Assembly (NCBI GenBank): GCA_031289315.1
Contig: JAITPR010000051.1
Coordinates: forward strand, 6,426-70,425
DNA from: Clostridiaceae bacterium
GTDB taxonomy: Bacteria > Bacillota > Clostridia > Christensenellales > CAG-917
DNA: 64,000 nt
Direction: 5' to 3'
A program made the translations under genes and the position numbers. The notes beneath the pieces were generated by a model. The model worked only from the letters and a program-made list of their open reading frames with translations. It was not told the origin of the DNA and did not search any database. Of the stretch, positions 8,199 through 35,790 are shown one piece after another. Position 1 is the stretch's first letter. Every line of letters begins with the position of its first letter.

Positions 8199-9554
8199 TT
8201 ACCCTTCCAGTGATGCAATGACCGTGTTTAGGAGTTCTCTCACGTGTACGTAGTTCTCCATTGCGCTTTCAAGCGGGCGACTCTCGTCCACCTCCGCCAT
8301 AGACGTGCCAAAACACAGCATATTCGTCTTTATCCTGACAAAAAGTTGCAGACTGTAGGATTTTCCGATGTTAGTGTTTATCGCCATGAGGTTCATAAAC
8401 ATCTTCTTCCCGAACAGTTCTCTATATTCGTGTATGAGCGGTCTCATTTCGGTAGTCGCAGACACCGGATAGCCCTCGGCGTTTTCTTTTATGTAGTCGT
8501 TAATCTTAGCCACATCTGCGGAATTTTGCGCCAAGCGGCAAAGCTCTTCCTCAAGCTCGGCTATAAAGGTTTCCGAAGACTCACCGTAGTCGAACATAGT
8601 AACCACCTCAAAACCGCCCGCTTCCCTTTTCGTAGCAAAAGCGTATGGACATGGTATATTTTCGCTACTTAAAATAGCAAAGTCTTTATAGTATTTCGGT
8701 TTAATAAGCATCCACCTGTCCGGCTTATCGAACCTAAAATCCGGCACCTTGTCTTCACCGTTCCGGTTGCTTAATCCTTCCGCGCCGTCCTCCGCCCCAT
8801 CTTTCTCATCGTCCCCGCCGTTACCCTTTAATTTAAATTCTTTGCCGTCGTAGAGCTCCGAAAAATCCATGTCCATGTAAGCGCAGTTTTCCAGTTCCGA
8901 TTTTTTGTGTTCCGCAAGGTCGCAGAGCTCCGAAAAAGCCATGTCCATGTAAGCGTCTAAATCAAATTCATCAGCCTCTTCCATCTCTTCCTCTTCTTCG
9001 TTCTCCTCCTCCGCTATAAACTCGTTTTCGTCCTCCTCCGCTATAAACTCGTTGAAAAACAGAAACATATCCCGCATTTGAGCCATACAATCGTACAGCG
9101 ATAGAAGACAGTCCATACCGTCGGCGGGGTCATCAATTTTTTTGATAAGCTCAGTCCAATCGTCATGCCGTATGCTATGTATCCCGTGATACTGCATTAT
9201 ACTCTCAATACGCGATTGTACCTCGTATGACTCACCGTCATATCTTTCGTTTACGAAATCGTAAGTGGAACCGTTATCGGAAAAGTATTTCGTCCCGTCG
9301 TCATCAATAATCGCAATAAGAATTCTTTCATCTCCGCGCATGAACATCAGTTTGTCATCACGGATCTTAAAATTATTTCCTATCATGCTACGCATATTAT
9401 ACTCCGGCACACTCTTAGCCACGCGCTCCGGCCCACTATTAGCCGCACTATTCACAGTACTCTCCGGCACACTATTGACCGCACTGTTTGCAGTACTCTC
9501 CGGCACGCTCTCCGGCAGAACCGGTTTATTTGATTTTTCTTTATCGTCTTTCAT
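8199..9554 (-). CDS. Acidic hypothetical protein with internal short repeats
   Basis: 451-aa ORF with GGGA RBS; repeats VPES-x-NSA, NEFIAEE x2, AYMDMxFSELxD x2; FSDNGST segment weakly recalls DUF1828. Confidence 0.75.
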   Translation of the reverse strand: MKDDKEKSNKPVLPESVPESTANSAVNSVPESTVNSAANSGPERVAKSVPEYNMRSMIGNNFKIRDDKLMFMRGDERILIAIIDDDGTKYFSDNGSTYDFVNERYDGESYEVQSRIESIMQYHGIHSIRHDDWTELIKKIDDPADGMDCLLSLYDCMAQMRDMFLFFNEFIAEEDENEFIAEEENEEEEEMEEADEFDLDAYMDMAFSELCDLAEHKKSELENCAYMDMDFSELYDGKEFKLKGNGGDDEKDGAEDGAEGLSNRNGEDKVPDFRFDKPDRWMLIKPKYYKDFAILSSENIPCPYAFATKREAGGFEVVTMFDYGESSETFIAELEEELCRLAQNSADVAKINDYIKENAEGYPVSATTEMRPLIHEYRELFGKKMFMNLMAINTNIGKSYSLQLFVRIKTNMLCFGTSMAEVDESRPLESAMENYVHVRELLNTVIASLEG

Positions 9555-9674
9555 TTCATTCCTCCTTATATTTATGTTATTTACGGGTGTGTTAGACCCT
9601 TACAACACCACCTGCGAAGCCACGCGTGCAGTGTGTGGTTGGTGCCGTTTGTGTGGCGCGTAGACTTACGCGCC

Positions 9675-11495
9675 TCAATCAAAAAAATCGTCTATACGCT
9701 TCCTCTTTCTACTTTTAAAGTCGAACGTATAGCGCGGCGCGTCGAATGACTCCGTACAAAACGGAGTTTCTTCCGTCAAGCCTCTTCCGTCGAGGAAGTT
9801 TTTAAACATTCCCATTCCCGCCGCCAAATAACTCCTGACATAGGCGGAACGGAATACCGGCATATAAATCCGCTTTATATACATTTCTCCGGGGCGTATC
9901 AGATCCAATTTACTCACCGGAATAAGCAGCACCTCCGAAAGTGTGTGGTCGTCGTCGTTCATCTGCGCTGAAAGCGTCGGCACAAAGCGTTTCCCGCACT
10001 CTGCGGAGAAGTTTTCCTTTGTCGCGCGGTTTTGCGCGCCTAAAAATATTTGAGAGTTGCAGTTATCTCTTATCACCACAGCTCTGTCTGCTCCGTACAC
10101 TATGTCCAACTGTTTGTGTGATTGCACCACTAAGTGAAACCATATGTTTCTAGAGCGCGCCGTGGAAATTTTGTTTTCAAGGTCGCGTATCTCCGGAATG
10201 TTACCAAACTCGTCAAGCAAGAAGTGTAGCGCGCGTTGCGGACCCTTTTTTTCCACCTTTTCCAACATCATTCTGTAAACCCAGTCTATAAACAAACCCG
10301 CAACTATAAAATCACTCTTCTCATAATCACGCGTTATATTGAATATCGCGAACGGGTTTTCGTCGTCGGAATCTAAATCAATGGTATTGCCGCTAGTAAG
10401 CGCGAATATGTGACCTTGCAGCCAGTCCTTAATGGCGGTGTCGAAAACGCCGCAATAGCTACGCATCGTAGTCGGTGCGTTTCCTAATGCGGTTGCCATC
10501 AGGGCTAGTGTCTTTTCACTTTTATCACGCAATACGGGGTGATTATATAAGGTGGTATTGTTATTCTCTGCCAAAATAGGCACTTTTAGCTCCAAATAAT
10601 AGCGTTGAAGTGTACGTAACGTCATCATATCACTGGTAAAGTCATCCTTTCTACGTGTGGCTTCCTCCAACATACAGTTTAGAAGTCCCTTTAAAAGGTC
10701 TTGTGCGCCGTACTCCCACGTCGGGTCTTTGCTACTCTGAACCTTGATCATCATGTGCGCCATCTGGCTGATTTTTGAGTCGATTTGCGCGGACAGCGTA
10801 CATCTCTCAAACGCGACATATGCGTCACAAGCGACTTCGTTTGCAAAAGCCCGTCCGGCATACTCCCAATATCCGGTGTCCATATACGCCTCATACGGCG
10901 GTGCCGTAATAAGTCCCTTTTTGACCTTGCCGGCGTGGAACTTAACGTCCTGTCCTGTCTCGGATAGCTTCATTGCATCCGTGTAAAGCTCAAAAAACGG
11001 GTTCCACCTGTCGGAGCGCATCGGCTCCTTAAAATTAAGCACAAAGATTTTATATCCCTGTTCCTTCAAATGCTTTACGTTTCTGTCAAACAGCTCTCCT
11101 TTCGGATCCGTAAGAAATAAATTCGGCTTATTTTTCTGCGAAGAAATTGCCCTCAACTGCGGTTCTACGCAGCCGGTCGTCTTACCGCTCCCCGTCGTAC
11201 CGACATAAAGCTCGTGGTGATAGGGCAAATAATGGAAGCGTAATTTGCACTCCTTTTTCTTTGCCGCCGATAAATTTTTATAATCCTCAGCAGAATATAC
11301 ATTGCCGTCCTTATCCGCTAAATCGCTTGCCACCGGATAGCCTTCTATTTCGGTTTTATTTAAATCCTCATAGTATACGGTTTTTAGTCCGTCGGCGGCG
11401 CTTAAATCTGTATAAAGTATTTCTCTGGAGTTCTCCAGATACTCCGCTATGTATGCGGCGCTTATTCTTGCCGCGAATGAATCGTCATTTTTCAT
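9675..11495 (-). CDS. VirD4/TraG-like (T4SS coupling protein family) ATPase lacking an obvious membrane anchor
   Basis: Walker A GTTGSGKT, TDPKGEL, WNPF, Walker B LLDEFGN, ARSRNI...VVQSHKQL..VYG, IRDNC. Confidence 0.85.
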   Translation of the reverse strand: MKNDDSFAARISAAYIAEYLENSREILYTDLSAADGLKTVYYEDLNKTEIEGYPVASDLADKDGNVYSAEDYKNLSAAKKKECKLRFHYLPYHHELYVGTTGSGKTTGCVEPQLRAISSQKNKPNLFLTDPKGELFDRNVKHLKEQGYKIFVLNFKEPMRSDRWNPFFELYTDAMKLSETGQDVKFHAGKVKKGLITAPPYEAYMDTGYWEYAGRAFANEVACDAYVAFERCTLSAQIDSKISQMAHMMIKVQSSKDPTWEYGAQDLLKGLLNCMLEEATRRKDDFTSDMMTLRTLQRYYLELKVPILAENNNTTLYNHPVLRDKSEKTLALMATALGNAPTTMRSYCGVFDTAIKDWLQGHIFALTSGNTIDLDSDDENPFAIFNITRDYEKSDFIVAGLFIDWVYRMMLEKVEKKGPQRALHFLLDEFGNIPEIRDLENKISTARSRNIWFHLVVQSHKQLDIVYGADRAVVIRDNCNSQIFLGAQNRATKENFSAECGKRFVPTLSAQMNDDDHTLSEVLLIPVSKLDLIRPGEMYIKRIYMPVFRSAYVRSYLAAGMGMFKNFLDGRGLTEETPFCTESFDAPRYTFDFKSRKRKRIDDFFD

Positions 11496-11509
11496 TTGCT
11501 ATTCTCCTT

Positions 11510-13174
11510 TTATGCCTTTCCCTTGTTGTTGAGCGTGCCGCCGAACCCAAACGGCGCGCCGTTGTCGGCGAACCTGTTCACGATAGCTTTAACCGCGACC
11601 TCCGTCACACCGTCCGCCTTTCCGGACAGCCGCTTTGCCTTGGCGTGGCAGGCGATATCGGCAACGACATCTTGAATATCGGAAGCGTTGCTATCGCAGA
11701 CAATCCTTTTCATTTCATCGGTCAAGAGGATATCTTCCCCATATTTGATTCGCCATTCGTTGAGGGCTTCTTCCAAAATAATGCCCTTTTCCTCATCGCG
11801 TGCGCTCCCCAACCTCACCGCGTCGCATGCGTTTACAAGCTGTGCGCCCGGCATCTCCTCCGCCGTAAGCACGATAAGCATGTCCGAAAAATCAAAGGTG
11901 ATGCCTAAGTCGTGTATTTTAAACTTCCGCATATACTCGTTGGATAGCATGTTAACAAGCCCGTCGACTACGTTAGTGGAAAGCTTGTCCGTTACGTCGA
12001 AGACAAACACAGTGGCGTTTTTTGATTCGATAACCCTTTGAACGACGACGTTGTCCCTATTCGGCTCCACGTTTTTCTCCGTCAGTCCTCCGGCGTCGAT
12101 GTTTTCCACGACCGCTCCGGCAAAGGCTTCCGCAACGGCATCCCTATACATGTCAAGAATAAACCTGTCGCGACATACCAAAAGCAAGGGACGGAACCCG
12201 GGTCTTGCCGCCGCGCCGTAGCCGCATACCTTAGTCCAAACCCTATCGGCTTCATTTTCGCGTTTTAGCCGCATGCCGTCAAAAGGCGCGTAGGACGGCT
12301 CAACGTTTTTATTGTTTACGTTCATATCCAGCGGCAGTTCGTTCACGGAGGAAAGCACTTCCTTGTTCGCGGAAAACAGCACCTTTTGTTTATCGGTGCG
12401 CGACAGCCGTGCGGAATAAGCCACGCGCGCCGCTTGAGGATTATAAATTTGCTTGTTGTAGCGCTCCTTGCCCTCGACGCACGCCGCAAAGCATTTCAAC
12501 ACTAACTCTGCATCGCGGTTTTCCTCCGTATTGTCAATTCCCGGGTATGCCGTATGTATGGATTTATAAAGCTCCTCGTGTAAATCGCATTTAAGCAACA
12601 CGTTTACGAACGTGAAGTGCTTTTTAATGTTTTTCTTGTCGTAGCGCAACAAGAGAAGCGCACAATCTAAATTGCCCCACTCCTCACCTTTGGTCAGCGT
12701 CTTTACCGCTTGAGGCAAATTTCTTGCTGCGCCTATGCCGTTTGCCAGCATAAAACCTAAGACGGTAAGAGCGGTAATGTCCCCATTTCTAGCGGCATCT
12801 TCCATCAACCGCACGGACTCCGCGCTGTCCGTTTCATGTTCGGACAAAAGCTTTGCTTCCGCCGCACGCCGTATACCGCTCCCCTTGCACAGGAATGCCC
12901 ATCTTTCGGTGTCCGTAAAGCCGGACTCAATGCCCGACTTGCCGCATTGATGCAACAACTTCTCCGTGCGCTCAAACCGCACTACGGTGTCGGCAACGGC
13001 TATTTGATGCTTTTTCGTCAACGCGTAAAGCGCCGAAATGTCTTTTTTGTCCGTCAAACCATACGCCGCGGCAAGCTCGCCGAAGACGCTCTCCGTATCC
13101 GCACCGAACTGCTTCAGTATGCCCTCAGCCGTAAAATAGACATTTAAAATTCTGCTGTTTGTTTCGTTTTTCAT
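11510..13174 (-). CDS. Sel1-like repeat protein with degenerate Lon-type AAA+ domain
   Basis: Sel1 motif AARNGDITALTVLGFMLANGIGAARN; C-half VFVFDVTDKL...FKIHDLGITFDFSDMLIVLTA...DEEKGII parallels the Lon AAA core. Confidence 0.65.
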   Translation of the reverse strand: MKNETNSRILNVYFTAEGILKQFGADTESVFGELAAAYGLTDKKDISALYALTKKHQIAVADTVVRFERTEKLLHQCGKSGIESGFTDTERWAFLCKGSGIRRAAEAKLLSEHETDSAESVRLMEDAARNGDITALTVLGFMLANGIGAARNLPQAVKTLTKGEEWGNLDCALLLLRYDKKNIKKHFTFVNVLLKCDLHEELYKSIHTAYPGIDNTEENRDAELVLKCFAACVEGKERYNKQIYNPQAARVAYSARLSRTDKQKVLFSANKEVLSSVNELPLDMNVNNKNVEPSYAPFDGMRLKRENEADRVWTKVCGYGAAARPGFRPLLLVCRDRFILDMYRDAVAEAFAGAVVENIDAGGLTEKNVEPNRDNVVVQRVIESKNATVFVFDVTDKLSTNVVDGLVNMLSNEYMRKFKIHDLGITFDFSDMLIVLTAEEMPGAQLVNACDAVRLGSARDEEKGIILEEALNEWRIKYGEDILLTDEMKRIVCDSNASDIQDVVADIACHAKAKRLSGKADGVTEVAVKAIVNRFADNGAPFGFGGTLNNKGKA

Positions 13175-13179: not shown

Positions 13180-14157
13180 TTACCTTCTAACCCTTTTGTT
13201 TTGCAACGGATTCATTCCGTGCGCGCTTAACAGCCTTTCATAGCGGTTTTGCTCTCTGTCCACCGCTTTTGCGTCGGTTATAACCTTTGATACCTCGGCG
13301 TAGAAATCGTCCCCGTGTCCCGATACCTTGAAGTGCGCAAATTCATGACAAATCACATATTCGACAATATGCTTTGGAAATATTACGATTTCCACATTGA
13401 GCATTATTCTGCGTTCCTTTGGGAAACACCGTCCCCATGCGCTTAATCTATCTTCAAAGCCGATTCTTATGTCGGCATACTCCGCGCCGTAAAGCTCCCG
13501 TATTTCCGTAAAAAGCCGCCTTACCTCATTTAGAGTTAAGCAGACCTCCGGTGGTTTTTCCGTTGCTTGCAGCTCCGCGGCAGTCGCTAGACGCACTTCC
13601 AACCACTTCACCGATTTTTTGACGGCGGCTTCCGCCTCCGACTCAACTTGCTCCTGATTTTTGCCCGCGAACGGCGCGGTAACGACAACCTTTCCGCCTA
13701 TAACGCGTAATTTCATCTCACGGTAACGGGCTTCGCGGACTATCGTATATTCGACTCCCGCCACGGTGTGCACCTTTTCGGACGACTTGAGCCGCAAGCG
13801 GAACTCGTCCTTATCGCCCTGAAATTCGCCTTCGCGACATTTCGATGCTACCTCGGCTTCCTCTTTTTGACGGTTGCGTTCGGCTTCCTGATTTTCTTTT
13901 TCGATTTGTTTAATTGCTTCTTCTTGCGCTTTCCCGTCGATTGCGTCTTTCTCCGCGCGGCTTACAGCGGATAAAAAATCCTTGTCATCCGTTTTCAAGT
14001 ATCCGTCGCTGAACGCTTGCGGGAAAGGAAACTTTCTCACGTCGCCTGCCGAAAAATCAACGGTGATATGCTTATTTTTCTTGTCAAATTCGGCTATGTG
14101 TCCGCGTCCGTATTTACCGTGAGTGACCGTAGCGCCGATTATTTTTTCGTCATTCAT
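13180..14157 (-). CDS. YgjP/DUF45 (M48-like) zinc metalloprotein with N-terminal SH3/Tudor-like segment
   Basis: SAWGRC, EYVICHEFAH, HGDDFY; N-terminal VTHGKYGRGHI...VDF; ATGA overlap with clpP stop. Confidence 0.8.
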   Translation of the reverse strand: MNDEKIIGATVTHGKYGRGHIAEFDKKNKHITVDFSAGDVRKFPFPQAFSDGYLKTDDKDFLSAVSRAEKDAIDGKAQEEAIKQIEKENQEAERNRQKEEAEVASKCREGEFQGDKDEFRLRLKSSEKVHTVAGVEYTIVREARYREMKLRVIGGKVVVTAPFAGKNQEQVESEAEAAVKKSVKWLEVRLATAAELQATEKPPEVCLTLNEVRRLFTEIRELYGAEYADIRIGFEDRLSAWGRCFPKERRIMLNVEIVIFPKHIVEYVICHEFAHFKVSGHGDDFYAEVSKVITDAKAVDREQNRYERLLSAHGMNPLQNKRVRR

Positions 14158-14759
14158 GCTTCGTTTCCTCCCGCCGCCTTTACCGCGGTTTTAATTACCT
14201 CGTCGATAATTCCGTATGCCTTTGCCTCCTCCGCAGTCATGATGTAGTCGCGGTCGGTATCGCGGCGTATTTTTTTAAGCGGCTGACCCGTATGCAAAGC
14301 AAGCATCTCGTTTAAATCCTTACGGATACGCTTTATGTGTTCGGCGGCAATTATGACGTCCGACGCTTGTCCGCTAGCTCCCCCTAAAGGTTGGTGAATG
14401 AGAATTTCGCTGTGCGGCAAAGCCTTGCGCAAGCCTCTCGTCCCCGCCGAAAGCAGAAACGCCCCCATGCTAGCCGCCATACCAACGGCAATAGTGCAAA
14501 TCTTAGCCTTTGCGTAGTTCATCGTATCGTAAATACCAAGCCCCGCCGATACGCTTCCGCCCGGGCTGTTGATTTGCAGAATGATTATCCGCTTCTCCTC
14601 CGGCACCTTGTTTTCGATGAACCGATAATCAAGGTACTGTATTTGCGCTATAATGCTACGCGCCGTTACGTCGTCAATCTCACCGTACAAGTCGATAATG
14701 TTTTGATCGAGCAAAAAATTGCTTGATAGCTCTGCTATCGTATTCTGTTTCCCAGACAT
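14154..14759 (-). CDS. clpP: ATP-dependent Clp protease proteolytic subunit (accessory paralog)
   Basis: INSPGGSV, GMAASMGAFLL (Ser), IHQPLGG (His), DRDY (Asp), AKAYGIID. Confidence 0.93.
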   Translation of the reverse strand: MSGKQNTIAELSSNFLLDQNIIDLYGEIDDVTARSIIAQIQYLDYRFIENKVPEEKRIIILQINSPGGSVSAGLGIYDTMNYAKAKICTIAVGMAASMGAFLLSAGTRGLRKALPHSEILIHQPLGGASGQASDVIIAAEHIKRIRKDLNEMLALHTGQPLKKIRRDTDRDYIMTAEEAKAYGIIDEVIKTAVKAAGGNEA

Positions 14760-14790: not shown

Positions 14791-15026
14791 ATTATACAAC
14801 TTCCTAAAACCTATGTCCGTCAATTGTGAATTGACAAATTTATTTCCTCCGACACATGGTTTCCGGGTGACATATATCTATCTAATTGTCAATAGCCTCA
14901 TTTCATAGGGTGTGGACAACCCACGGTGACGACTTGCTACTTGAGAAAATATTTATCACCGCAAATTATCAATAGCTTCATTATATAACGTCCTAAAAAC
15001 TGTGTACGCAATTGCGAATTGACAAA
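14791..15026 (-). promoter_or_regulatory. Duplicated ~47-bp promoter/operator unit upstream of clpP
   Basis: 14791-14838 and 14980-15026 share ATTATAyAACkTCCTAAAA..TrTGT.CG.CAATTGyGAATTGACAAA, including TATAAT on the minus strand. Confidence 0.6.
14907..14970. repeat. Inverted copy of the 5043-5114 dispersed repeat
   Basis: AGGGTGTGGACAACCCACGGTGACGACTTGC; flanked by near-direct repeats ATTrTCAATAGCyTCATT. Confidence 0.6.
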
Positions 15027-15155: not shown

Positions 15156-16406
15156 TTATTTTTCCTGATCTGTTTTATTCGGATCTATTTGGCTTCTTTC
15201 GGTTAAAGAATAGAAGACTAAATCTTTGTTAAGTTTCTTTTGCGTACCAAGAAAATCCTGCGCATATTCAACCGCAGACTTATAAATGCCACCTACAATT
15301 CCGCCTTTCTCATATGTCCCTTTCTCCATATAAATCGCGATATAACTTTCCGTATCATCGTACGGAAAAGAATGACCCCAAAACGCAAATAACCTTGTTG
15401 TTTTTTCCACGTCCAAATGAAATCCAATGGCAAGTTTAAGCAAACTACGCCTATTAGGAGTAGCTTTTCCTCCGATATAGTTACTGTACAACTGTTTGTC
15501 CAAGCAGGCAGCTTTATATACCTCGGGACTTTTTATTGCGTTTTTCCTTTCCAAATCAATCAACAAATCTCTAAATGTATTGAACGGGAAAGACTTAGCT
15601 CGTTGTTTTTCTTTTTTTTGGGCGGCGAATTGGTCGATTTCGGCTTGCGATACAATTTTGTATTGCTTTTCATTTTCGGCATGCAGTTCGTCTTGCTGTA
15701 ACTTCTGACGCTTTTGCTCTGCGGCGTTATCGTCGGCTGTTTTAGATGAGCAAAGACTCTCCTCTTTTTGTCTTTGGGCGGTGCGTCCGATTTTTTCAAT
15801 CTTCTCGCGGAGGTCGTCATCTTGCCGGTTTGTACTTTTTTCTCCGGACCCGGTATCCACCGACCGGAGTTTTTGTTTTTCGACGTCATCGGCAGGTCTT
15901 TTAGGTGGTTCTGAGGCGTATAAGCAACAAATATCCTTCTCTCTTTCCCGGCGCGCCTCTTCTCTCTGTTCTTTTTCCGCTTCTTCCCGACGTTCGTTTT
16001 CTTTCCATGGGTATGCCGATTCTTCATCCCCATCTTTCTTATAGAGTCCGAAGAACACACCCCCTAAGTCTTGACGCGACTTTAAGAACCGTGATTGTCT
16101 TTTATCTGCGTACAGCTGTTTAAAATAACCCTCCAATTTAAAGCGGCGCCACGACAAAAGCTTTTCCGCAATCGTCAGCAGTTCTTCCATGCCGCGCGCG
16201 GAAAAAAACTTATGTAAATCAGAACGGTCGCCTTCTCCGCAACCGTACTTTAAATAATATAGGAATTCCGCAGTCGTAGCTAGCTCGTCGCGAACCTCGT
16301 CGCACCGGTGCCACAGCCTTTGCGGTATCTCTTTTGCATAATCCAGCTCTTGCCGAAGCGTTTTCTCTAACGCCTTTTCCAACTTTCTTTTATTTAACTC
16401 TTCCAT
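15156..16406 (-). CDS. Hypothetical protein with C-terminal XRE-like HTH domain
   Basis: FRDLLIDL..K....PEVYKAACLDKQLYSNY....TPNRRSLLKLAIGFHLD; similar to 59917-60537; start placed at ATG 16406 (upstream alternative 16439). Confidence 0.65.
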   Translation of the reverse strand: MEELNKRKLEKALEKTLRQELDYAKEIPQRLWHRCDEVRDELATTAEFLYYLKYGCGEGDRSDLHKFFSARGMEELLTIAEKLLSWRRFKLEGYFKQLYADKRQSRFLKSRQDLGGVFFGLYKKDGDEESAYPWKENERREEAEKEQREEARREREKDICCLYASEPPKRPADDVEKQKLRSVDTGSGEKSTNRQDDDLREKIEKIGRTAQRQKEESLCSSKTADDNAAEQKRQKLQQDELHAENEKQYKIVSQAEIDQFAAQKKEKQRAKSFPFNTFRDLLIDLERKNAIKSPEVYKAACLDKQLYSNYIGGKATPNRRSLLKLAIGFHLDVEKTTRLFAFWGHSFPYDDTESYIAIYMEKGTYEKGGIVGGIYKSAVEYAQDFLGTQKKLNKDLVFYSLTERSQIDPNKTDQEK

Positions 16407-20514: not shown

Positions 20515-20551
20515 AATACTGTCCTCCTCCGTGTTAGCCTATTGGTAACCC
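20461..20551. repeat. 91-bp perfect direct repeat, copy 1 (RBS and first 18 codons of the zincin gene)
   Basis: Identical to 25537-25627 by base-by-base reading. Confidence 0.93.
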
Positions 20552-20720: not shown

Positions 20721-20864
20721 CTTGTTGAAATGATACCACATTTTACAAATAAGTCAATCCCTTGCCGTATATATTCGCGAATTGACAAAATAAATAAAAG
20801 ATGCCGCCTTGCTAGACAAACAACGCAACATCTTTTTATGTATATAAATGCGTTTTATGTGAGG

Positions 20865-25421: not shown

Positions 25422-25533
25422 TCCTCAATCTTGTTTTTCTTATGCTTATTTTTCTAACATCGTATAACCCGCACCCGACTTTTGCCGGGCGCCGTTGTTA
25501 GCTGTTTTGCAAGCTTCCGGTGAGAAGCCACCA

Positions 25534-25590
25534 TTAGCCGTTGTCGGAAACCTCGACAAACGGCTTCTTGTTGTTCTTTTGTATTGCCAT
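25534..25590 (-). pseudogene. Truncated duplicate of the zincin 5' end (MAIQKNNKKPFVEVSDNG*)
   Basis: Repeat copy 2 carries the RBS and 18 codons, followed immediately by TAA. Confidence 0.75.
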
Positions 25591-25627
25591 AATACTGTCC
25601 TCCTCCGTGTTAGCCTATTGGTAACCC
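25537..25627. repeat. 91-bp perfect direct repeat, copy 2
   Basis: Identical to 20461-20551. Confidence 0.93.
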
Positions 25628-28700: not shown

Positions 28701-29510
28701 ATTATCCGTGTTTTGTATGTCAATAAACGGCTTTTCCGCACTGTTTATTTTAGGGTTCTTATTAGTTTTTGCGCTCCCCACCCCAGTGGTTTTTGGAAGT
28801 GTAGGCTTTGACGTATCTTCCCGCTTTTCTGTAAAGTGCGCCAAACCTTCGTTTACTAACCATTTGTAATCTTTAGTTAATCCTACCCCGTCTGCCCTAA
28901 TAATAAAGTACTTTTGAGCAGACGATATCCTGATCTGTTTTATTTCGACATACCCGTTTTTGAGTATTTTGTCGAGGGGCTCAAATTCAATCGGGTGTTC
29001 TGCCCATGGTAGGCATTTTATTTTCTTTTCTTCCGGTGCATTTCTCTCCTCGGCATAATGTGCTAATCCGCAAGCCCTAAGCTCTTCACAATCCATAGTA
29101 TCAAAAGTGCCGTCCGTTTCTTTGATGAGCTTATACTTGAAAACGCCGTTTGCCTCCGTCCTTTTTATCGCGACATATCCTTTTGCCGCTATCACTTCGG
29201 AAGACTCAAATTCAATCTGATCCCCTTTCCACGGTGAGTCGATTTCCATAGGCTTGCGATTTACATAGCCTTCGTCGATGAGTTTTTTGATGGAAACATA
29301 CTTTTTTTCTTTTTTGTCGTCGCCAACCATTGCTAATTCATAATCAAATTTGTCTCCGCGTTGCACCGGCCAAAGCTTGTCCACTTTCATTGCCATCAAT
29401 TCCAACGGGGTGAGCCGAGTAAAATAAGGTTCATGAACTTTATGAAGCTCACGGATATTTTTATTAAGGTCGCCGTCCGCCGGCGTAACGTCGTTATTTT
29501 TCGTGTCCAT
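25710..29510 (-). CDS. Large PP2C-like phosphatase: three N-terminal ~60-aa repeats, disordered linker, PP2C core, coiled-coil repeats
   Basis: LVVADGLGGSG, PTTLAA, WAGDSRCY, VSDGVFD, DDTTVAFVALG; TAATG coupling with the kinase stop; repeats like KAAFEKAVEVFSDIKGAKKE. Confidence 0.85.
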   Translation of the reverse strand: MDTKNNDVTPADGDLNKNIRELHKVHEPYFTRLTPLELMAMKVDKLWPVQRGDKFDYELAMVGDDKKEKKYVSIKKLIDEGYVNRKPMEIDSPWKGDQIEFESSEVIAAKGYVAIKRTEANGVFKYKLIKETDGTFDTMDCEELRACGLAHYAEERNAPEEKKIKCLPWAEHPIEFEPLDKILKNGYVEIKQIRISSAQKYFIIRADGVGLTKDYKWLVNEGLAHFTEKREDTSKPTLPKTTGVGSAKTNKNPKINSAEKPFIDIQNTDNSPQSKPEVVQATATGDANPPANTAKRRGSFYDGEYEEWSNGVRKLDGGNELPVKATTEKAPDKPKAEPTEKETTETKSTEKKTASKETKAKSKPADVDSGASDTNAVEIAVKAPKTGASETEQTEKAPTGAESVKKSPVRHTPPKPLQSDKKPPKKEADLAFKFYSVLKNEDADPFLYSDEDGGLLVVADGLGGSGSYVHPLNFEDKRKLSQEELIKYVLDEYNKKKHSDPDFADYLEKWLAPMVDDKEDTSALWASRVVISRFIFALREESAKFDDLTDATTRKELVKFIRKGLDKTASQYKLKTPQSYLLLPTTLAAIKYKVGDDDIFDDKKIDGDTAVKNKSDGKKVTCDVVWAGDSRCYVLKPDGMKLLSKDDEDSSKAITNLFYVQQPNEKIINTKLNHKRFTFDTPIILMAVSDGVFDPYEPHDNLGVEAVMLETIKNSQSDTDGASIEKLKNSLEEHFDKIKADDTTVAFVALGFKDYKDMVSKFAKRRTEVLKKDKKYRENINGLEIFGKPKEEFDKYVRERTLTKIETVASKFVEVYANTYDKPESPDKPKQYDFAFTDGIKGVIDGVVKNQKGAFDGRIKQKKENAAQDIKAYILSNAEKVEKDILKDKIEFADKKQQKPFEALKDTAQKYIALRNAVEALESTTQKYVDSEGKVKGINQRILDASLAGDAALKKIFDIQKANETEVADIETIWGGEKSGSSPKPIGVGKKKFVQLSLPQKTEAFEANLTQTLETCKTELNELKAAHKALNAAKTDLPGAEEERNAAKAAFEKAVEVFSDIKGAKKEPNAGKISGAENEPNKAKAAFEKAIEVFSDIKGAKKEPNKAEAEFAKAVEVFSDIKGAKKERDTAKVAFESAVTGFMALPILEDKTYDKLFKKPFSATYKLGELSAVFKLAEDGNAIDECGRALIDAFKSDGKYVEKLIEALATNYSKTSSVIDNSGYNAARMREFREYYKQRLDESDTVNQFKKELDEFESAYEELIND

Positions 29511-31084
29511 TATTTGATGTACCTCAAAATTTTCATATTGTTTACTTTTATTGCGTCGTTTACGTGTCCGTCCGTAAAGGTTATTCTATAGCGGTGTTCG
29601 CCGTCATACTCCACTCGCGCAATGCTCTTCACCTTGCGCTCCGTTAGGTAGGCGGAGTCGGCATACGCGGTACCGTGTTCCGGCCAAGGCGTGTCTACGT
29701 CCATTTTAAAGCTTTTGGGATGTGCCAAGCCCTCTTCTATCAACCACCTGTAGCCTTTGTCGAAGCTACGCCCGCCTATCTGGGTGATAGTATAGCGCCT
29801 TCCGTAGAGGGCATCTAAGCGGTCTATCGCGATATAACCCGCTTCGGTTATCGTTTCAAGGGGCTCAAATTCAATCAGGTGTTCTTCCCACGGTTCACAC
29901 ATTTTGGCATTCTCGCGCTTTGCGTAGCCTTCGCGGCATATTTCGTCAATGGATAGCCTAACTTCCTTATCACCGACCAGAACCAAATATTTCAAATAGC
30001 CGCCGTCGTTGATACGTTTGAACATCCTGACGCCTTTCTTCTTAAGGGTTTCAACGGTATAAAGGTGGGCGACCAGCTTATGGTCACCCCACAGCTCCGT
30101 ATCGAACGGTTTCACGTCGCTGCCCTTGTGGAAAGCCGCCGGCACGCTTAAAGTATCGGATAAAACATCTATGACGTTTCCCGCTGTGGGGCGATCCGCC
30201 GGGTCTTTGGCAAGCATCCAGTTAATCAGGGACATAAGCGTCGCGCCGCATTTATCGCCGATTATGCAGTCGAACTTCTTGTCGATAAAAATGTTTCCGT
30301 CGCTGTAAACCGCTTCGCCGATTGAAGCGTCGCCTATGTCGGTCGCGGGGAACATTCTATGCCCCGCACCGTCCTTTGTCCACAAGAGATGGAAAATAAG
30401 ACCCAATGAAAAGATGTCCGTCGCTATCGTAACCGTTTCCGGTGCCGACGCACCCTCTTCGCTTGTGTATAGCGCAATCTCCGGGCTTTCGTAGCCGGGC
30501 GACCCTCCTATGCTGCTTTCATATTTGGCAATGCTCTTAGCCGGATACGACGAGTCAAAATCTATGATGTACGGGACGTATTTCCCGCTCTCGTCGGCAA
30601 TGAGGATGTTGCTCTCCTTTAAGTCGCCGTGGATAATGCCGCGCTCATGAAGGAGCTTTATAGGTTCCACCATGTCACAGCAAAGCTTTATAAAGGATTT
30701 CCTATCAAGCGTTGAAAAGTCGAAGTCCTTGTCCACTTTGTTGTCTATGTACAAGGTAACCGTGACGAACTGACACGATATGGGGGCGGTGTCCCAAAAG
30801 TTGTATTCCTCCACCACAACGCGGTCCTTTCTTGAGTCCAACCCCTTCATCAAAACTTTTAGCTCTTTTTGTTTGCTGTTCACGCGTTCCTGCGTGGCTA
30901 ACTTGATTTTACGCACGGTGTCGCTGTCGCCCTTGGACGGACAACGTGCGTGCATATCTCTCTTGATAAAGTATTTTTCGCCGCCCTTGCGCGCGATAAC
31001 GGTTTCACCGTTTCCGGTGTTCACCCATTTTATTATTTCGCCGTCTATAAAGGCGCTATCAACTTCATAACCCCAGTAGTCCAT
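29510..31084 (-). CDS. Hanks-type Ser/Thr protein kinase with three C-terminal repeats
   Basis: YFIKR, IIHGDLKESNILI, IIDFD, GSPGYESPE, DIFSLG, MLAKDPADRPT. Confidence 0.9.
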   Translation of the reverse strand: MDYWGYEVDSAFIDGEIIKWVNTGNGETVIARKGGEKYFIKRDMHARCPSKGDSDTVRKIKLATQERVNSKQKELKVLMKGLDSRKDRVVVEEYNFWDTAPISCQFVTVTLYIDNKVDKDFDFSTLDRKSFIKLCCDMVEPIKLLHERGIIHGDLKESNILIADESGKYVPYIIDFDSSYPAKSIAKYESSIGGSPGYESPEIALYTSEEGASAPETVTIATDIFSLGLIFHLLWTKDGAGHRMFPATDIGDASIGEAVYSDGNIFIDKKFDCIIGDKCGATLMSLINWMLAKDPADRPTAGNVIDVLSDTLSVPAAFHKGSDVKPFDTELWGDHKLVAHLYTVETLKKKGVRMFKRINDGGYLKYLVLVGDKEVRLSIDEICREGYAKRENAKMCEPWEEHLIEFEPLETITEAGYIAIDRLDALYGRRYTITQIGGRSFDKGYRWLIEEGLAHPKSFKMDVDTPWPEHGTAYADSAYLTERKVKSIARVEYDGEHRYRITFTDGHVNDAIKVNNMKILRYIK

Positions 31085-31142: not shown

Positions 31143-31868
31143 TTACGAGTTCGAACTTGCCGAAGCCGCCAAAATTTTGATTATGCCTTCGAAGTCAATC
31201 TCGGCAAGTCCCTTGCTTATTGCCACAGGTTCAAACACGCTCCGGTTAAGCTTAGCTTTCCACTTTTCATACCTTGTGCCGGACGGTGCAAAGATGACAA
31301 GCCGCTTGTTTTTCTCACGCAGCTTAACGGCGGGGTCTTGACTTTTACAGAACCACGCGTCTTCGAACGCCACATCGTCCACCATGCCTTCAGGGTATCC
31401 CTGACAGCCCGCCCGTTTCAGTAGCGGAAGCGTGTCCGTATCCGCAAACAATACTATAACCTGCCTATCGTGAGGTCCCATCACAAAATCGGATTTCATG
31501 GCTAGATATAACGCTTCCAGTCCGTTTGCGTCCTGTCCGACGCCGCCCGCCGCCCTTATCTCGGACAAGCGTTTTTCAAAATCGGCGGTGTCGTCGGGCA
31601 ACTCATACCAGCTATCGTCAACCTCCATTGCGTCGACGGATTTCTTAATAGCTTCATTTCCCGGTTTATAGTCGCGGAAGACGATAGTTTTTACGCGCAG
31701 CGCGTCGATGTCATCTCCCTTTTCAGTCATTTCCTTGACAAAATCCTCATAGAAATGCTTGATGTTGGTCTTGACATTTTCTATGCACGGAGCCATACTA
31801 CGTGTACCGTCCATACAAAACACTATGTCAATCTTTCTCTTTTTTTTAAGTCGATTTTCGTTAGGCAC
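31143..31868 (-). CDS. vWA domain protein
   Basis: IDIVFCMDGTRSM (MIDAS), VFRDY, GGVGQDANGLEAL, VLFAD; GTG start with GGAGG; ends AASASSNS. Confidence 0.88.
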   Translation of the reverse strand: MPNENRLKKKRKIDIVFCMDGTRSMAPCIENVKTNIKHFYEDFVKEMTEKGDDIDALRVKTIVFRDYKPGNEAIKKSVDAMEVDDSWYELPDDTADFEKRLSEIRAAGGVGQDANGLEALYLAMKSDFVMGPHDRQVIVLFADTDTLPLLKRAGCQGYPEGMVDDVAFEDAWFCKSQDPAVKLREKNKRLVIFAPSGTRYEKWKAKLNRSVFEPVAISKGLAEIDFEGIIKILAASASSNS

Positions 31869-32117: not shown

Positions 32118-33593
32118 TCACACATCTTCTTCCAATATTTGTAAAACACTATAAAAGTCTATGTCACCCAAGCCGTTTCCCATTTCAACAGGTTCAAACA
32201 CGCTTCTGTCGAGTTTGGCTCTTAAATTTTCATACTTCGTGCCGGAGGGGGCAAAGAGGACGAGGCGCTTGTTTCTCCCACGAAGATGGCTTTCGGGGTC
32301 TTGATTGTTACCCATCCATGTGTCTATAAGACCTTTCTCACCAACCATATCCACTGGATACGCACCCGCTCCCTTTCTTTCACCCAACTCCAAATAATCG
32401 GCGTTAGTAAACAAAACGATAATTTGCCTATCAGTTTTGGACACTCCCATGAAATCAGATTTCATGGCAAAATACAGCGCTTCAAGTCCGTTTTCCGGAG
32501 CGTCTCCGCCGCCGTGCGCCGTAACACCGGTCAAGTAGTTGGCAAAGTCGCTGTCGTCGTCGGGCAACTCAAACCACTGGCTGATTTTCATTGCCTCGTC
32601 GCCGTCGAACCCGTAGTCTCTAAAGACGATAATCTTTACGCGCAAACTATCGATATCGTAGCGGCGTTGCTCAAGCTCCTCGCAGTACTCAATACGAAAA
32701 CGTTTTATGTTGTTCTTTACGCTCTCAATGTGAGGCGCCATGTCTCCTGTACCGTCGATACAGAACACCATATCAACTGCGCTCTTTTTTTTGCTGATGT
32801 CTTTCTTTACGCTCTCAATGTGAGGCGCCGTGTCTCCTGGACCTTCGTGCACCACGTCGTCAATGCTTTCTTCTATCAGCCTTCTTCTATCTTCGGGCGC
32901 CGCCACGGCGGGACACATTATTTTTATAATATCGTCGAAGTTGATATCTCCCAAGCCTTTTCCCATTGCCACCGGCTCAAACACGCTCCTGTTAAGGTTG
33001 GCTTTTAAATTTTCATACTTCGTGCCAGAGGGGGCAAAGAGGACGAGGCGCTTGTTTCTCTCACGAAGCTTGCTATCTAGGTCTTGACTTCTACAAAGCC
33101 ACATATCCTGTAAGCCTTCTCCGTTAACCATGTCTTCCGGATACGAACCCTTTCCCTTCCTTTCACCCAACTCTAGACAATCGGCATTGGTGAACAGCAC
33201 GATAACCTGTCTGTCGTTGCGTCCGGTCATGAAATCTTGCTTCATGGCAAAATACAGCGCTTCAAGTCCGTTTTCCGGAGCGTCTCCGCCGCCGTGCGCT
33301 TCGATGTCTCTTAAATAGTTACTCAATTCTTCATCATCTTCGGGCAAATCAAACCAATTGCTGATTTTCATTGCCTCGTCACCGTCGCACCCATAGTCTC
33401 TAAAGACGATAATCTTTACGCGCATTGAATCTATGTAGCTGTATTGTTTGGTCATTTCCTCTGCAAAATCAAGGTAAAACCGTTTCACGTTGTTCTTTAC
33501 GCTCTCAATGTGAGGAGCCATGTCTCCTGTACCGTCGATACAGAACACCATATCAATTTTGCTATGTATCACTAATATATTGTCATAATTCAT
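32118..33593 (-). CDS. Tandem double-vWA protein with altered MIDAS
   Basis: Two copies of DMVFCIDGTGDM...FRDY...GGGDAPENGLEAL...LFTNAD. Confidence 0.88.
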   Translation of the reverse strand: MNYDNILVIHSKIDMVFCIDGTGDMAPHIESVKNNVKRFYLDFAEEMTKQYSYIDSMRVKIIVFRDYGCDGDEAMKISNWFDLPEDDEELSNYLRDIEAHGGGDAPENGLEALYFAMKQDFMTGRNDRQVIVLFTNADCLELGERKGKGSYPEDMVNGEGLQDMWLCRSQDLDSKLRERNKRLVLFAPSGTKYENLKANLNRSVFEPVAMGKGLGDINFDDIIKIMCPAVAAPEDRRRLIEESIDDVVHEGPGDTAPHIESVKKDISKKKSAVDMVFCIDGTGDMAPHIESVKNNIKRFRIEYCEELEQRRYDIDSLRVKIIVFRDYGFDGDEAMKISQWFELPDDDSDFANYLTGVTAHGGGDAPENGLEALYFAMKSDFMGVSKTDRQIIVLFTNADYLELGERKGAGAYPVDMVGEKGLIDTWMGNNQDPESHLRGRNKRLVLFAPSGTKYENLRAKLDRSVFEPVEMGNGLGDIDFYSVLQILEEDV

Positions 33594-33884: not shown

Positions 33885-34586
33885 TTATGAGTTTGAGCTT
33901 GCCGACGCCGCTATTATTTTTATAATACCGTCGAAGTTGATATCTCTCAAGCCTTTTTCCATTGCTACCGGCTCAAACACGCTCCTGTTAAGGTTGGCTT
34001 TTAAATTTTCATACTTCGTGCCGGAGGGGGCAAAGAGGACGAGGCGCTTGTTTCTGTCACGAAGCTTGCTATCGGGGTCTTGACTTCTACAAAACCACAT
34101 ATCCTGTAAGCCTTCTCCGTTAACCATGTCTTCCGGATACGAACCCTTTCCCTTCCTTTCACCCAACTCCAAGTAATCGGTATCGGTGAACAGCACGATA
34201 ACCTGTCTGTCGTTGCTTCCGGTTAAGAAATCTTGTTTTATCGCAAAATACAGCGCCTCCAGTCCGTTTTCCGGAGCGTCCCCGCCGCCGTTAGCCGTAA
34301 CACCGGTCAAGTAGTTGGCAAATTCGCTGTCGTCGACGGGCAACTCAAACCAGTTGCTGATTTGCATGGAATCGTCGCCGTCGAACCCGTAATCTCTGAA
34401 TACGATAACCTTTACGCGCATTGAATCTATGTCGCTGTTTTGTCTGGTCATTTCCTCTGAAAAATCAAGGTAAAACCGTTTCGCGTTGTTCTTAACGCTC
34501 TCTATACAAGGAGCCATGCTCCCCGTTCCGTCGATACAAAACACCACATCGATGTTTCTCTTCTTTTTTAAAACATTGCCAGCCAT
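33885..34586 (-). CDS. vWA domain protein
   Basis: IDVVFCIDGTGSM, GGGDAPENGLEAL, LFTDTD; ATG 34586 with AGGAGG; ends AASASSNS. Confidence 0.88.
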   Translation of the reverse strand: MAGNVLKKKRNIDVVFCIDGTGSMAPCIESVKNNAKRFYLDFSEEMTRQNSDIDSMRVKVIVFRDYGFDGDDSMQISNWFELPVDDSEFANYLTGVTANGGGDAPENGLEALYFAIKQDFLTGSNDRQVIVLFTDTDYLELGERKGKGSYPEDMVNGEGLQDMWFCRSQDPDSKLRDRNKRLVLFAPSGTKYENLKANLNRSVFEPVAMEKGLRDINFDGIIKIIAASASSNS

Positions 34587-34669
34587 AATTGAATTCCTCC
34601 TGAAAATTCTCTTTTTGTTAGTTCTTTTGCTTTTGTGCGCGGATACAAGCCGCACAACTACGTTGTTTA

Positions 34670-35485
34670 TTACTCATTCGTAGGCTTCGCCGTTATAACC
34701 GGCTCTTCGCTTTCGAAGCTTTCTGTCGCAAGCCCCAACGAAATCTGCTCTTCCGCTTGCAAGCTTTCGTCCGTGGGTATTTTGTATTTCTCTTGGTTGC
34801 CTATTTGATTTTCTCCAACCGAATTGTCCGGTTCGGTACATGCGGCGGCAAACTCTGTTTTCCCCGATTTTTCTAAAACCGCCGCTTCGTCTTCCGACAT
34901 TTTCGCGATGATTTCAAGCGGAACTCTCACATAAACTTTTTCACCCATAAACTCCAACTCCAACCGCGCCTCGCGGTTGTGGCGATTGACTTTTTTTATA
35001 AGGCTTTCGTGACCCTTGAGCGCCCCGTCTATTATGATAATCTTATCGCCGACTACATAACCTATTGACCTCCCTAACTGCTTACTATCCTTGAATAACA
35101 GCTCTAGAATCTTTTTTTCTTCTTGCACTACGGCACTTTTTTGCGAATCGCCGTACTTCAAAATACGTATCATGTTGCTTGAACTGCGAATAAATTCCGC
35201 GGTTTCTATCGCGAACTTATCCTCCGGCATTGTGGTTTCTATGAACACATAGCCCGGCATCATCGGCACGTACTTATAAGAACTTTCCGACCGCCCGGAC
35301 TCCTTGTTCTTCCTGCGGAAAAACTTTTCTTCATGCGGCACAAACGGTGTAATCTCATGGTGTATGCCGTCGGTTTTTTCACATCGCTTTTTGACGTGCT
35401 CAAAAAACTTATCAAGAGCTTCCACCACCGGCAACTCTTGCCCAGCCACTATGAACATGACATAAAGATAACACCCTTCTTTCAT
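34670..35485 (-). CDS. loaP: LoaP-like NusG paralog (transcription antiterminator)
   Basis: NGN motif MMPGYVFIET, IRILKY; KOW segment SIGYVVGDKIIIIDGALKGHESLIKKVNRHNREARLELEFMG; start ATG 35485 or GTG 35569. Confidence 0.8.
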   Translation of the reverse strand: MKEGCYLYVMFIVAGQELPVVEALDKFFEHVKKRCEKTDGIHHEITPFVPHEEKFFRRKNKESGRSESSYKYVPMMPGYVFIETTMPEDKFAIETAEFIRSSSNMIRILKYGDSQKSAVVQEEKKILELLFKDSKQLGRSIGYVVGDKIIIIDGALKGHESLIKKVNRHNREARLELEFMGEKVYVRVPLEIIAKMSEDEAAVLEKSGKTEFAAACTEPDNSVGENQIGNQEKYKIPTDESLQAEEQISLGLATESFESEEPVITAKPTNE

Positions 35486-35612
35486 TTTTTTCTCAACTGA
35501 CAAATGACAAAATTTTCCCTTGTCACCCGCTTCGTAATTTCCGCGCGCTACGGCAAATTCTACGTCCACCGCCGCACCTACCGAGACCCATACCTACGAG
35601 CAAATGCAAACG

Positions 35613-35746
35613 GCTTCACAGACTGATTTCTTCAGCCCCCTCACAAGGCGGAGCGACCTATTCTTTCGAATAAACAAAATCCGCTTCACAGACTGATTTC
35701 TTCGCCCCCTCACAGGGCGGAGCGACCTATTCTTTCGAATAAACAA
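35613..35746 (-). ncRNA. Tandemly duplicated structured 5' leader (two ~65-nt units)
   Basis: Copies 35613-35677 and 35683-35746; each reads UAUUC-GAAA-GAAUA, GGUCGCUC, CGCCyU-GUGA-GGGGGC on the minus strand. Confidence 0.65.
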
Positions 35747-35761
35747 TCTGACTTCTTATAT

Positions 35762-35790
35762 ATAATAACACAACTCATTTAGGATTGCAA
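35762..35790 (-). promoter_or_regulatory. sigmaA-like promoter heading the accessory locus
   Basis: Minus strand TTGCAA-17 bp-TATTAT with TG extension. Confidence 0.65.

Follow-up and report, generated by a model that had tools for sequence, protein, structure and literature searches.

The window analysed here is a stretch of 64,000 nucleotides (nt) from a Clostridiaceae bacterium whose genome comprises 2.18 Mb in 63 contigs, and the locus in question is a region of this window (positions 8199-35569) that is filled by 17 open reading frames (ORFs), all on the minus strand (g01 to g17, Table 1). The explanation that we favour, with a confidence that is about even, is that of a composite conflict (defence-type) island, in which a TerY-P-like switch would be combined with interchangeable effector modules, several proteases among them. 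Judged by sequence, the locus is best read as four layers: a conserved core of vWA, kinase, PP2C and zincin genes; an inserted NACHT-FGE cassette; a triad of genes for ClpP, a pseudo-AAA+ protein and a VirD4-like ATPase; and genes particular to this window, namely the LoaP-like gene, g12, the YgjP-like gene and g17. The kinase, both PP2C proteins, the zincin, ClpP, the YgjP-like protein and the VirD4-like ATPase all retain intact catalytic motifs.

The switch was identified by protein scans of the locus against Pfam, NCBIfam, PADLOC and PHROGs and by a comparison of core loci, which comprised the best 80 of 212 relatives from a scan of one genome per species, mapped with hidden Markov models and tblastn. 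These loci fall into 26 close ones, from gut metagenome-assembled genomes of Clostridia and Bacilli with several short contigs among them, and 54 distant ones from Actinomycetes, Cytophagales, Thermoplasmata and others. vWA genes were present in 23 of the 26 close and 50 of the 54 distant loci, the kinase gene in 24 and 46, and the PP2C gene in 25 and in all 54. A zincin gene was found in 22 close loci and a small Zn-Cys/Xre helix-turn-helix (HTH) gene (~110 aa) in 13, both in none of the distant loci, which are plain TerY-P-like triads. The order of the core genes is fixed in the close loci. Therefore, the heart of the window appears to be a zincin-bearing, coiled-coil-PP2C subtype of TerY-P, and on this comparative evidence the core, which comprises one to three vWA proteins, is a subtype, in gut Bacillota, of the known triad. 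The recognition of vWA, PP2C and kinase as a TerY-P-type triad, made earlier from the DNA letters and their translations (the sequence-only reading), is thereby borne out. The small HTH gene is not in the window, where the vWA and PP2C genes are duplicated relative to the core. In related loci (L005-L030), antisense ORFs as long as 708 aa lie over the vWA and kinase genes; these are spurious, resulting from the strongly purine-biased coding strand, and led a gene caller that picks the longest ORF astray.

The four vWA domains of the window are encoded by three genes, tandem paralogs with nucleotide identities of up to 95% (repeats D1-D5), and g02 and g03 exceed the Pfam cut-offs for VWA_4, VWA_2 and VWA. 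The kinase g05 matches Pfam Pkinase (E 1.3e-19), has the catalytic motifs HGD, K, N and DFD, and was modelled by AlphaFold2 as a Hanks-kinase fold with a predicted local distance difference test score (pLDDT) of 90.6; its top Foldseek matches were all kinases. Its C-terminal 200 aa, modelled as three beta-alpha repeat units, had no Pfam match at E<=1 and no PDB sequence match at E<=10, and an Atlas search with them gave sub-threshold leads only. The same domain opens g06, whose residues 1-235 duplicate the repeat domain of the kinase (blastp E 9e-19; DNA repeat D9) and are followed by a low-complexity linker, the PP2C domain, a coiled coil with 24-aa repeats and a conserved C-terminus. The kinase and this phosphatase therefore have a probable targeting domain in common. 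A comparison of g06 with PDB sequences gave nothing significant. Its coiled-coil part contains tandem 72-nt (24-aa) repeats of families D6 and D7 at 26085-26408. The two phosphatases g06 and g11 are paralogs with 39% identity over ~440 residues, both keep the motifs DGLGG, GDSRCY, SDGVFDP and DD(A/T)T, and the PP2C motifs are invariant across an alignment of 18 sequences. g11 is the paralog nearer to the ~680-aa family of other genomes, an unnamed family of which a word-based search found 126 proteins at E<=0.001, mostly from gut metagenomes. In the zincin g10, the residues H252, E253, H256 and E300 are invariant in 20 of 20 homologs, and the protein shows a weak likeness to the ATLF/lethal-factor-type zincin fold.

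The second module with counterparts elsewhere consists of g13, g15 and g16, into which the YgjP-like g14 is placed in this window only. Ser97, His122 and Asp171 of g13 are invariant in five of five sequences; the protein stays under the NCBIfam equivalog cut-offs (216.7 vs 308.6) and is the second ClpP copy of the genome, the other copy scoring higher. The partner g15 combines Sel1-like repeats at its N-terminus (E 3e-6 for a profile comparison with PDB) with a fold resembling Lon (profile E 3e-4; Foldseek E 4.8e-8, probability 1.0; model pLDDT 88.3). An exhaustive profile search assigned 3880 proteins to its family at E<=0.001, and at E<=1e-30 at least 246 clusters at 50% identity, nearly all of ~535 aa. 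A Walker A motif (GxxGxGK[ST]) is missing from all 145 full-length sequences of the best 150 and the consensus is without GKT or hhhhDE, while 134 of the 145 carry [hydrophobic]-G-F within the last 20 residues, usually as (Y/F/I)GFGG, in a tail that is disordered in the model of g15. A tripeptide loop, IGF or IGL, is the element by which Clp ATPases dock on ClpP. The (Y/F/I)GFGG tail may serve as a lead to follow, being a candidate ClpP-docking motif by analogy. As in the Clp and Lon proteases (ClpXP, ClpAP, Lon), a ClpP with a catalytic triad is encoded here beside a protein of Lon-like AAA+ fold whose flexible tail ends in a motif resembling the docking loop. Unlike in these proteases, the AAA+ protein is without Walker A and B, the candidate motif is C-terminal rather than in a loop, and the only active-type ATPase of the module belongs to the VirD4/FtsK-HerA class. 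This ATPase, g16, matches Pfam T4SS-DNA_transf with 120.1 bits and also exceeds the thresholds of TraG-D_C and TrwB_AAD_bind, and its Walker motifs GSGKT and LLDEFG are conserved in five of five sequences. A hydrophobic anchor at the N-terminus is missing from all 24 family members examined (top Kyte-Doolittle value in the first 150 residues 1.09). The translocase module of the sequence-only reading could not be upheld, since without such an anchor a role of g16 in translocation across the membrane is doubtful.

Genes for g15 and the VirD4-like ATPase lie within 10 kb of the core in four of the 26 close loci. In three of them (L014, L018 and L025) the ClpP, g15 and VirD4-like genes are adjacent beside the core, and in the fourth (L021) the latter two are adjacent and the locus ends before the place where ClpP would be expected. 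Across 401 genomes sampled from the phylum, the g15 family occurs in one, the source genome itself. The association of g15 with the core is therefore to be regarded as real and facultative rather than obligatory, with the reservation that the loci are related and hence not independent. An FtsH-like AAA-AAA-M41 protease stands beside the core in another form of the same theme in three of the 26 loci, so that the link to proteolysis proposed in the earlier reading is recurrent. A small DUF1292-like gene (sub-threshold) precedes the ClpP or the FtsH-like protease in four loci. Further recurrent neighbours are a leucine-rich-repeat family (six related loci; its scanned member also has a TIR domain), YbjN-like proteins, a SpoVK-like AAA ATPase, radical SAM/SPASM proteins, DUF4231/SLATT and a metallophosphoesterase, and FtsK-gamma proteins, an integrase and MACPF were also seen in related loci. 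The MACPF gene (677 aa, perforin-like), a candidate effector, directly follows the zincin of a related core (L014, 12974-15007). This pattern of neighbours is that of a sensor or switch module with interchangeable effectors and, judged by gene content, also that of a generic defence island.

For the composite island we infer a trigger, phospho-targets, a physical complex of ClpP, g15 and g16, and a role in defence, which could be connected as follows. The vWA proteins would bind an invader-derived trigger or assemble on it, and the balance of kinase and PP2C would turn this trigger into a phosphorylation state, with g06, which has the repeat domain of the kinase, allowing kinase and phosphatase to be drawn to the same partner. 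The phosphorylation state might then license proteolytic effectors, the zincin and a ClpP machine in which the VirD4-like hexamer would provide ATP-driven work and the pseudo-AAA+ protein would dock this hexamer onto ClpP. The outcome would be the destruction of invader or host proteins, leading to immunity or abortive infection, and the LoaP-like factor may help transcription from a single strong upstream promoter to pass internal terminators. A bolder form of this proposal is that the triad represents a new class of ATP-dependent protease, in which a VirD4/FtsK-type hexamer replaces the Clp/Hsp100 unfoldase and a dead Lon-like scaffold docks this hexamer onto ClpP, and which is switched as an immune effector by a TerY-P-type sensor; we regard this as speculative and rather unlikely.

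The NACHT-FGE genes had been set apart as a separate cassette in the sequence-only reading, and this was confirmed by their boundaries and composition. A direct repeat of 91 nt, both copies of which are perfectly identical, flanks a ~5-kb segment (20552-25536) with a guanine plus cytosine (GC) content of 35.5%, as compared with 46.3 and 46.7% in the other parts of the locus. Wherever a related locus has both genes on one side, the zincin gene comes directly after the PP2C gene; by this comparison, the cassette was recently inserted at the junction of the two. Contigs of two sequencing runs (X1 and X2) from different studies contain the cassette together with its junction to g06, and X1 is probably the source sample. 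At the 91-nt node the depth is double that of the adjoining nodes, as expected of two copies; the short-word contigs are compatible with an excised circle plus an empty site, too. The FGE-sulfatase (FGS) domain of g07 is well supported (57.7 bits, E 1.8e-15), whereas its NACHT domain reaches 16.5 bits against a cut-off of 26.7 and has a P-loop, GIGNST, with Asn in place of the Walker A Lys. No homolog of g07 was found at E<=1e-10 among the 400 other genomes of the phylum sample. Residues 13-31 of g09 form the only clear transmembrane segment of the locus (Kyte-Doolittle 2.75). Similar short motifs, TTGCAA followed a few bases on by TAAC or TAGC, occur at both inner ends of the cassette (20552-20760 and 25490-25536) and may be recombination or operator sites. 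A diversity-generating retroelement acting on the FGS domain was considered and rejected: the 3' end of g07 has no repeat partner in the window, and no reverse transcriptase was found in the 27 scanned ORFs, most ORFs beyond 39.7 kb lying outside the scan.

At the upstream end, g01 exceeds the Pfam cut-off for NusG (NGN; 32.9 vs 22.2 bits), with a KOW match under its cut-off (17.2 bits) and a match to the PHROG antiterminator family (E 5.7e-15). LoaP (NF033641) is its best-scoring NusG subfamily in NCBIfam, at 112.5 bits and thus below the cut-off of 125. It is the first gene of the long co-oriented run and stands behind a 5' leader that is unique within the organism's own genome, matches no Rfam family and folds no better than shuffled sequences (z -1.0 to -1.5); the leader is a possible target of the LoaP-like protein. 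Antitermination is plausible at this locus because a terminator-like hairpin sits after g09. It would, however, not characterise the family of systems as a whole: of 200 other genomes of the order, three carry LoaP-like genes, none of which adjoins a vWA-kinase-PP2C cassette, and the closest one elsewhere (38% identity, G462) heads a polysaccharide operon. To judge from this distribution, the LoaP-like gene is a local addition or recruitment and not part of the definition of the system. A further LoaP-like gene, with two stop codons, lies upstream of a weak kinase-like gene and a radical SAM gene in another locus (L213, G480:C17, 1373-4591), a context that looks like a peptide-modification cluster.

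The outer transcription signals named in the sequence-only reading were recovered together with its 17 co-oriented genes: a promoter-like site with 9 of 12 matches plus TG at 35762-35790, and, for the terminator placed at 8080, a bidirectional one of 13 bp. Upstream, luxS has its own terminator (36052-36026). Internal promoters had been suggested at 19212, 20730 and about 14800, and promoter-like sites do exist there (20757-20730, 19239-19212 and 14819-14791), preceding the zincin, g11 and ClpP genes; such sites are, however, no commoner than in shuffled sequence (27 vs 22.4±5.4; 32 vs 22.8±4.7).

Several points weigh against the composite island. Several transcription units would suit the six intergenic gaps of 250-400 nt, of which three contain promoter-like sites, as well as the internal terminator. 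No family named TerY-P was among the PADLOC matches of the 17 proteins, the presence of such models in PADLOC-DB 2.0.0 being unchecked, and the matches to named systems were weak ones to mad6 and mad8 and generic kinase ones (MkoA and PD-T4-6 for g05). The PP2C call was made from motifs, a sub-threshold NCBIfam match and a precomputed PF13672 assignment on 5 of 120 listed relatives, with no curated threshold reached. The triad was found near the core in 4 of 26 core-anchored and 1 of 80 VirD4-anchored metagenome loci, many of which are short, and given that it also occurs alone, triad and core may simply have come to reside in the same variable islands. The closest VirD4-like relatives (44-63% identity) are mostly without a full g15 and an adjacent co-oriented ClpP, and are preceded by a shorter, weakly g15-like gene. 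Finally, g15 is without ATPase motifs, and we know of no ClpP that works with FtsK/VirD4-type motors.

These points lend some weight to another explanation, according to which three or four independent systems (the TerY-P-like cassette, a NACHT-FGS STAND sensor, the ClpP triad and single genes) share an integration hotspot with no signalling between them. The triad genes are adjacent with no core within 10 kb in four VirD4-anchored loci (L146, L147, L203 and L204), g15 and VirD4-like genes likewise occur without a core within this distance in L190 and L152, and 22 of the 26 close loci have the core but no triad. The gene content of the neighbourhood is highly variable, the promoter-like sites before the zincin, g11 and ClpP genes would suit separate units, and VirD4-like modules adjoin holB-PSP1 in L130 and L152, as would be expected of a hotspot. 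However, the frequency of g15 near the core, as compared with the phylum sample, speaks against this view, and in L131, which holds one of the closest VirD4-like relatives, the VirD4-like gene directly abuts the core (in the order short g15-like, VirD4-like, zincin, vWA, kinase, PP2C). In addition, two unrelated forms of protease, ClpP-based and FtsH-like, recur beside the core, sometimes after the same DUF1292-like gene. We therefore see independent systems as a possible, somewhat doubtful alternative.

That all 17 genes form one new system on a single LoaP-antiterminated transcript, as the sequence-only reading had it, is improbable. Their co-orientation, with a good promoter-like site at one end and a strong terminator at the other, the first position of the LoaP-like gene behind a structured, duplicated leader and the read-through that the hairpin after g09 would need are in its favour. 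However, seven of the 17 genes (LoaP, g07, g08, g09, g12, g14 and g17) each have a counterpart in none of the 26 close and none of the 80 VirD4-anchored loci, the NACHT-FGE cassette appears to be a recent insertion, and the rare LoaP-like genes of the order keep other company. In the gene-neighbourhood comparison the core thus recurred, with the triad beside it in some loci, but the whole set was not conserved. It is more improbable still, to the point that we give it hardly any credence, that the downstream part is what decay has left of a conjugative or mobilisable element, without defence function and with the VirD4-like gene as a leftover coupling protein. The three Pfam families of g16, its NCBIfam match to the 'VirD4-like conjugal transfer protein, CD1115 family' (214 bits) and the integrase and FtsK-gamma genes of some related loci would suit such an origin, and like the type IV coupling proteins (VirD4/TraG/TraD) g16 has the P-loop of T4SS-DNA_transf. 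Yet the CD1115 score is below the cut-off of 250, the membrane anchor is missing in all 24 family members, and no type IV secretion system (T4SS) context was seen, relaxase, VirB4 and integrase having no match among the 17 genes and 10 flanking ORFs scanned. The partnership of the VirD4-like gene with ClpP and g15 is conserved, and both g15 and the core PP2C are essentially absent from plasmid and phage collections and IMG/VR: searches of 72,556 plasmid and 50,697 phage records gave no match to g15, and the core PP2C had only a distant plasmid match and no relative in the IMG/VR scan.

The composite island lies between housekeeping genes, tmk, holB and yaaT (PSP1) on one side and luxS, pfs and rsmG on the other, and its GC content (46.3-46.7%) is lower than the 48.6% of the remaining window. 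A single weak match to the 893-aa PP2C g11 was found across 40 relatives, while holB-PSP1 is kept in 24 of 24 relatives, in which luxS is not within 1.5 kb. Because g11 is nearly missing from kin in which holB-PSP1 is conserved, the region 8199-35569 is, in all appearance, an accessory island that has been inserted between tmk-holB-yaaT(PSP1) and luxS. In two distant organisms, whose PSP1 is 42-44% identical to that of the window, g15-like and VirD4-like genes lie a few kb downstream of holB-PSP1-rsmI (L130, 2997-9755; L152, 1-12007). This location of VirD4-like modules suggests an integration hotspot, and the holB-PSP1 cluster may be shared as such.

Table 1. Features of the locus, with positions in the window in the order of transcription
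Feature	Position	Strand	Basis and details
Sigma-70-like promoter	35762-35790	-	TTGCAA, 17-nt spacer, TATTAT, extended TG; 9/12 matches
5' leader	35585-35745	-	two tandem ~70-nt units with two small predicted hairpins each; repeat D20
g01, LoaP-like NusG paralog	34670-35569	-	likely true start ATG 35485, giving 271 aa
g02, vWA	33885-34655	-	Pfam; metal-ion-dependent adhesion site (MIDAS)-like motif DGTGS
g03, tandem vWA-vWA	32118-33593	-	Pfam; repeats D1-D5 to g02
g04, divergent vWA	31143-31868	-	Pfam below threshold; repeats D1, D3, D4; tblastn to vWA genes of related loci
g05, Hanks-type Ser/Thr kinase with three C-terminal ~60-aa repeats	29510-31084	-	Pfam, AlphaFold2, Foldseek
g06, PP2C-like, 1266 aa	25710-29510	-	repeats D6, D7, D9; blastp; motifs
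91-nt repeat, upstream copy	25537-25627	-	D12; zincin ribosome-binding site and first 18 codons; 18-aa stub ORF only
g07, STAND-like NTPase with FGE-sulfatase (FGS)	22752-25421	-	Pfam; GC 36.0%
g08, cassette gene, 219 aa	22120-22779	-	no match in Pfam, PADLOC, NCBIfam, PHROGs
g09, cassette gene, 410 aa	20865-22097	-	no family match, no PDB match
Intrinsic-terminator-like hairpin with U-run, cassette 3' end	20787-20836	-	-22.1 kcal/mol, z -2.84; promoter-like 20757-20730 follows
91-nt repeat, downstream copy	20461-20551	-	D12; real 5' end of zincin gene
g10, zincin metallopeptidase	19525-20514	-	HExxH with downstream Glu
g11, PP2C with coiled coil, 893 aa	16468-19149	-	motifs; NCBIfam Stp1 PP2C E 1.5e-7, below cut-off
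g12, charged, 427 aa	15156-16439	-	no family match; best PDB match E 0.49
g13, accessory ClpP	14154-14759	-	CLP_protease 219.4 bits
g14, YgjP-like zincin	13180-14157	-	HEFAH motif; Pfam YgjP-like, SprT, WLM
g15, Sel1-like repeats, Lon-like AAA+ fold, disordered C-terminal FGFGG tail	11510-13174	-	profile, model, Foldseek
g16, soluble VirD4/TraG-like P-loop ATPase	9675-11495	-	Pfam, Walker motifs
g17, acidic, 451 aa	8199-9554	-	isoelectric point 4.35; 22% Asp+Glu; no family match; best PDB match E 0.69
Bidirectional intrinsic terminator closing the locus	8081-8109	.	13 bp; -18.8 kcal/mol, z -3.39

TerY-P is a switch of vWA, PP2C and kinase with reported activity against T7-like phages and, according to two papers (PMC11090510, PMC7699616), it was described by Anantharaman, Iyer and Aravind in 2012, its role in defence being tested by Gao et al. 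in 2020. Like TerY-P, the window has adjacent genes for vWA (TerY-like), Ser/Thr kinase and PP2C proteins in a variable island. Unlike in TerY-P, g05 ends in three copies of an unassigned repeat, whereas the C-terminus of the described kinases is an OB-fold in the defence form and a zinc ribbon in the CoCoNuT form. The PP2C here carries a coiled coil of ~300 aa and a conserved C-terminus, the zincin and HTH genes accompany the triad in the close loci, and four vWA domains and two PP2C proteins occur together in the window. The nearest published theme is that of the Type III-A CoCoNuT extensions, in which TerY-P with duplicated vWA genes is joined by add-on cassettes of FtsK/VirB4-class and AAA+ ATPases (PMC11090510). 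The locus shares TerY-P, duplicated vWA genes and an ATPase add-on with them. In contrast to CoCoNuT systems, no McrBC/CoCoNuT core was detected in the 17 proteins by Pfam, NCBIfam or PADLOC, and the ATPase of this locus is of the VirD4-like type, has ClpP and a pseudo-AAA+ protein as its partners and is not flanked by vWA genes.

In the methylation-associated defence system (MADS), MAD6, MAD7 and MAD8 are mandatory and are joined by methylase and specificity components (bioRxiv 10.1101/2023.03.30.534895). The kinase resembles mad6 (E 1.9e-22) and g16 resembles mad8 (E 2.4e-9) in PADLOC. Membership in MADS was nevertheless rejected, as the NCBIfam MAD6 score was 44.9 bits as compared with 460, and mad6 and mad8 were the sole mad matches (none to the methylase, the specificity subunit, MAD3, MAD4 or MAD7); the likeness is, at sequence level, one of domains only. 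The conflict systems of Kaur et al. (2020) combine vWA with variable effectors (FGS, TIR, SLATT and peptidases), and the same paper also describes NACHT combinations, FGS as an effector domain and a vWA-kinase-PP2C trio beside GAP1-N2 GTPase systems (PMC7159879). Unlike in those systems, a MoxR, iSTAND or GAP1 core was not detected here, and the terms 'ClpP' and 'VirD4' have no occurrence in that paper (PMC7159879). The triad of ClpP, pseudo-AAA+ and VirD4-like proteins is an undescribed module. Neither this triad nor the zincin-bearing subtype was described in the literature that we found, the 2012 TerY-P paper and the supplementary files on CoCoNuT and of Kaur et al. and Gao et al., which may already list the subfamily or its neighbours, lying outside this coverage.

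As to the genes particular to this window, nearly all domain labels of the sequence-only reading stood (LoaP-like, vWA, kinase, PP2C, FGE, zincin, ClpP, YgjP, Sel1-AAA, VirD4-like and acidic), NACHT being weak as described above. Its HTH label for g12, a protein without a Pfam match, could not be confirmed, and its M48 label for g14 differs from the Pfam families in Table 1. One weak match to g14 was found among the 54 distant loci, and an Atlas search with g17 gave sub-threshold leads only. Within g12, a 34-nt stretch (15542-15576) has contig depths of 132.8 and 59.3 in the two runs, as compared with ~25 and 2, and is probably shared with other sequences of the samples. In the 396-nt gap before the ClpP gene, a dispersed intergenic element of ~30 nt (14905-14967), with copies at 56317-56347 and 5068-5097, forms the inverted-repeat pairs I4 and I8, and several contigs of run X1 branch there; it is probably a REP/MITE-like genome repeat (repetitive extragenic palindrome or miniature inverted-repeat transposable element).

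Outside the locus, a small array resembling an orphan CRISPR lies at 38600-38892, with four, possibly five, copies of a 34-nt repeat and unique spacers of ~30 nt; the repeat is found nowhere else in the genome, and the scan for cas genes did not cover the neighbouring ORFs. A tandem duplication of 84 nt (39241-39408) lies within the ORF at 39117-39620, and three intergenic 44-nt repeats at 57182-57311.

TerY-P is a reported defence system, for which the part of the literature that we found gives no mechanism. The subtype described here adds a conserved peptidase beside the triad and a putative targeting domain common to the kinase and one phosphatase, and its repeated pairing with protease modules suggests regulated proteolysis as one output. 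The 91-nt repeat around the NACHT-FGS cassette provides a clean example of how such islands may gain modules. The ClpP triad represents a sizeable family without an assigned function and, should the proposed mechanism hold, it would enlarge the circle of known ClpP partners.

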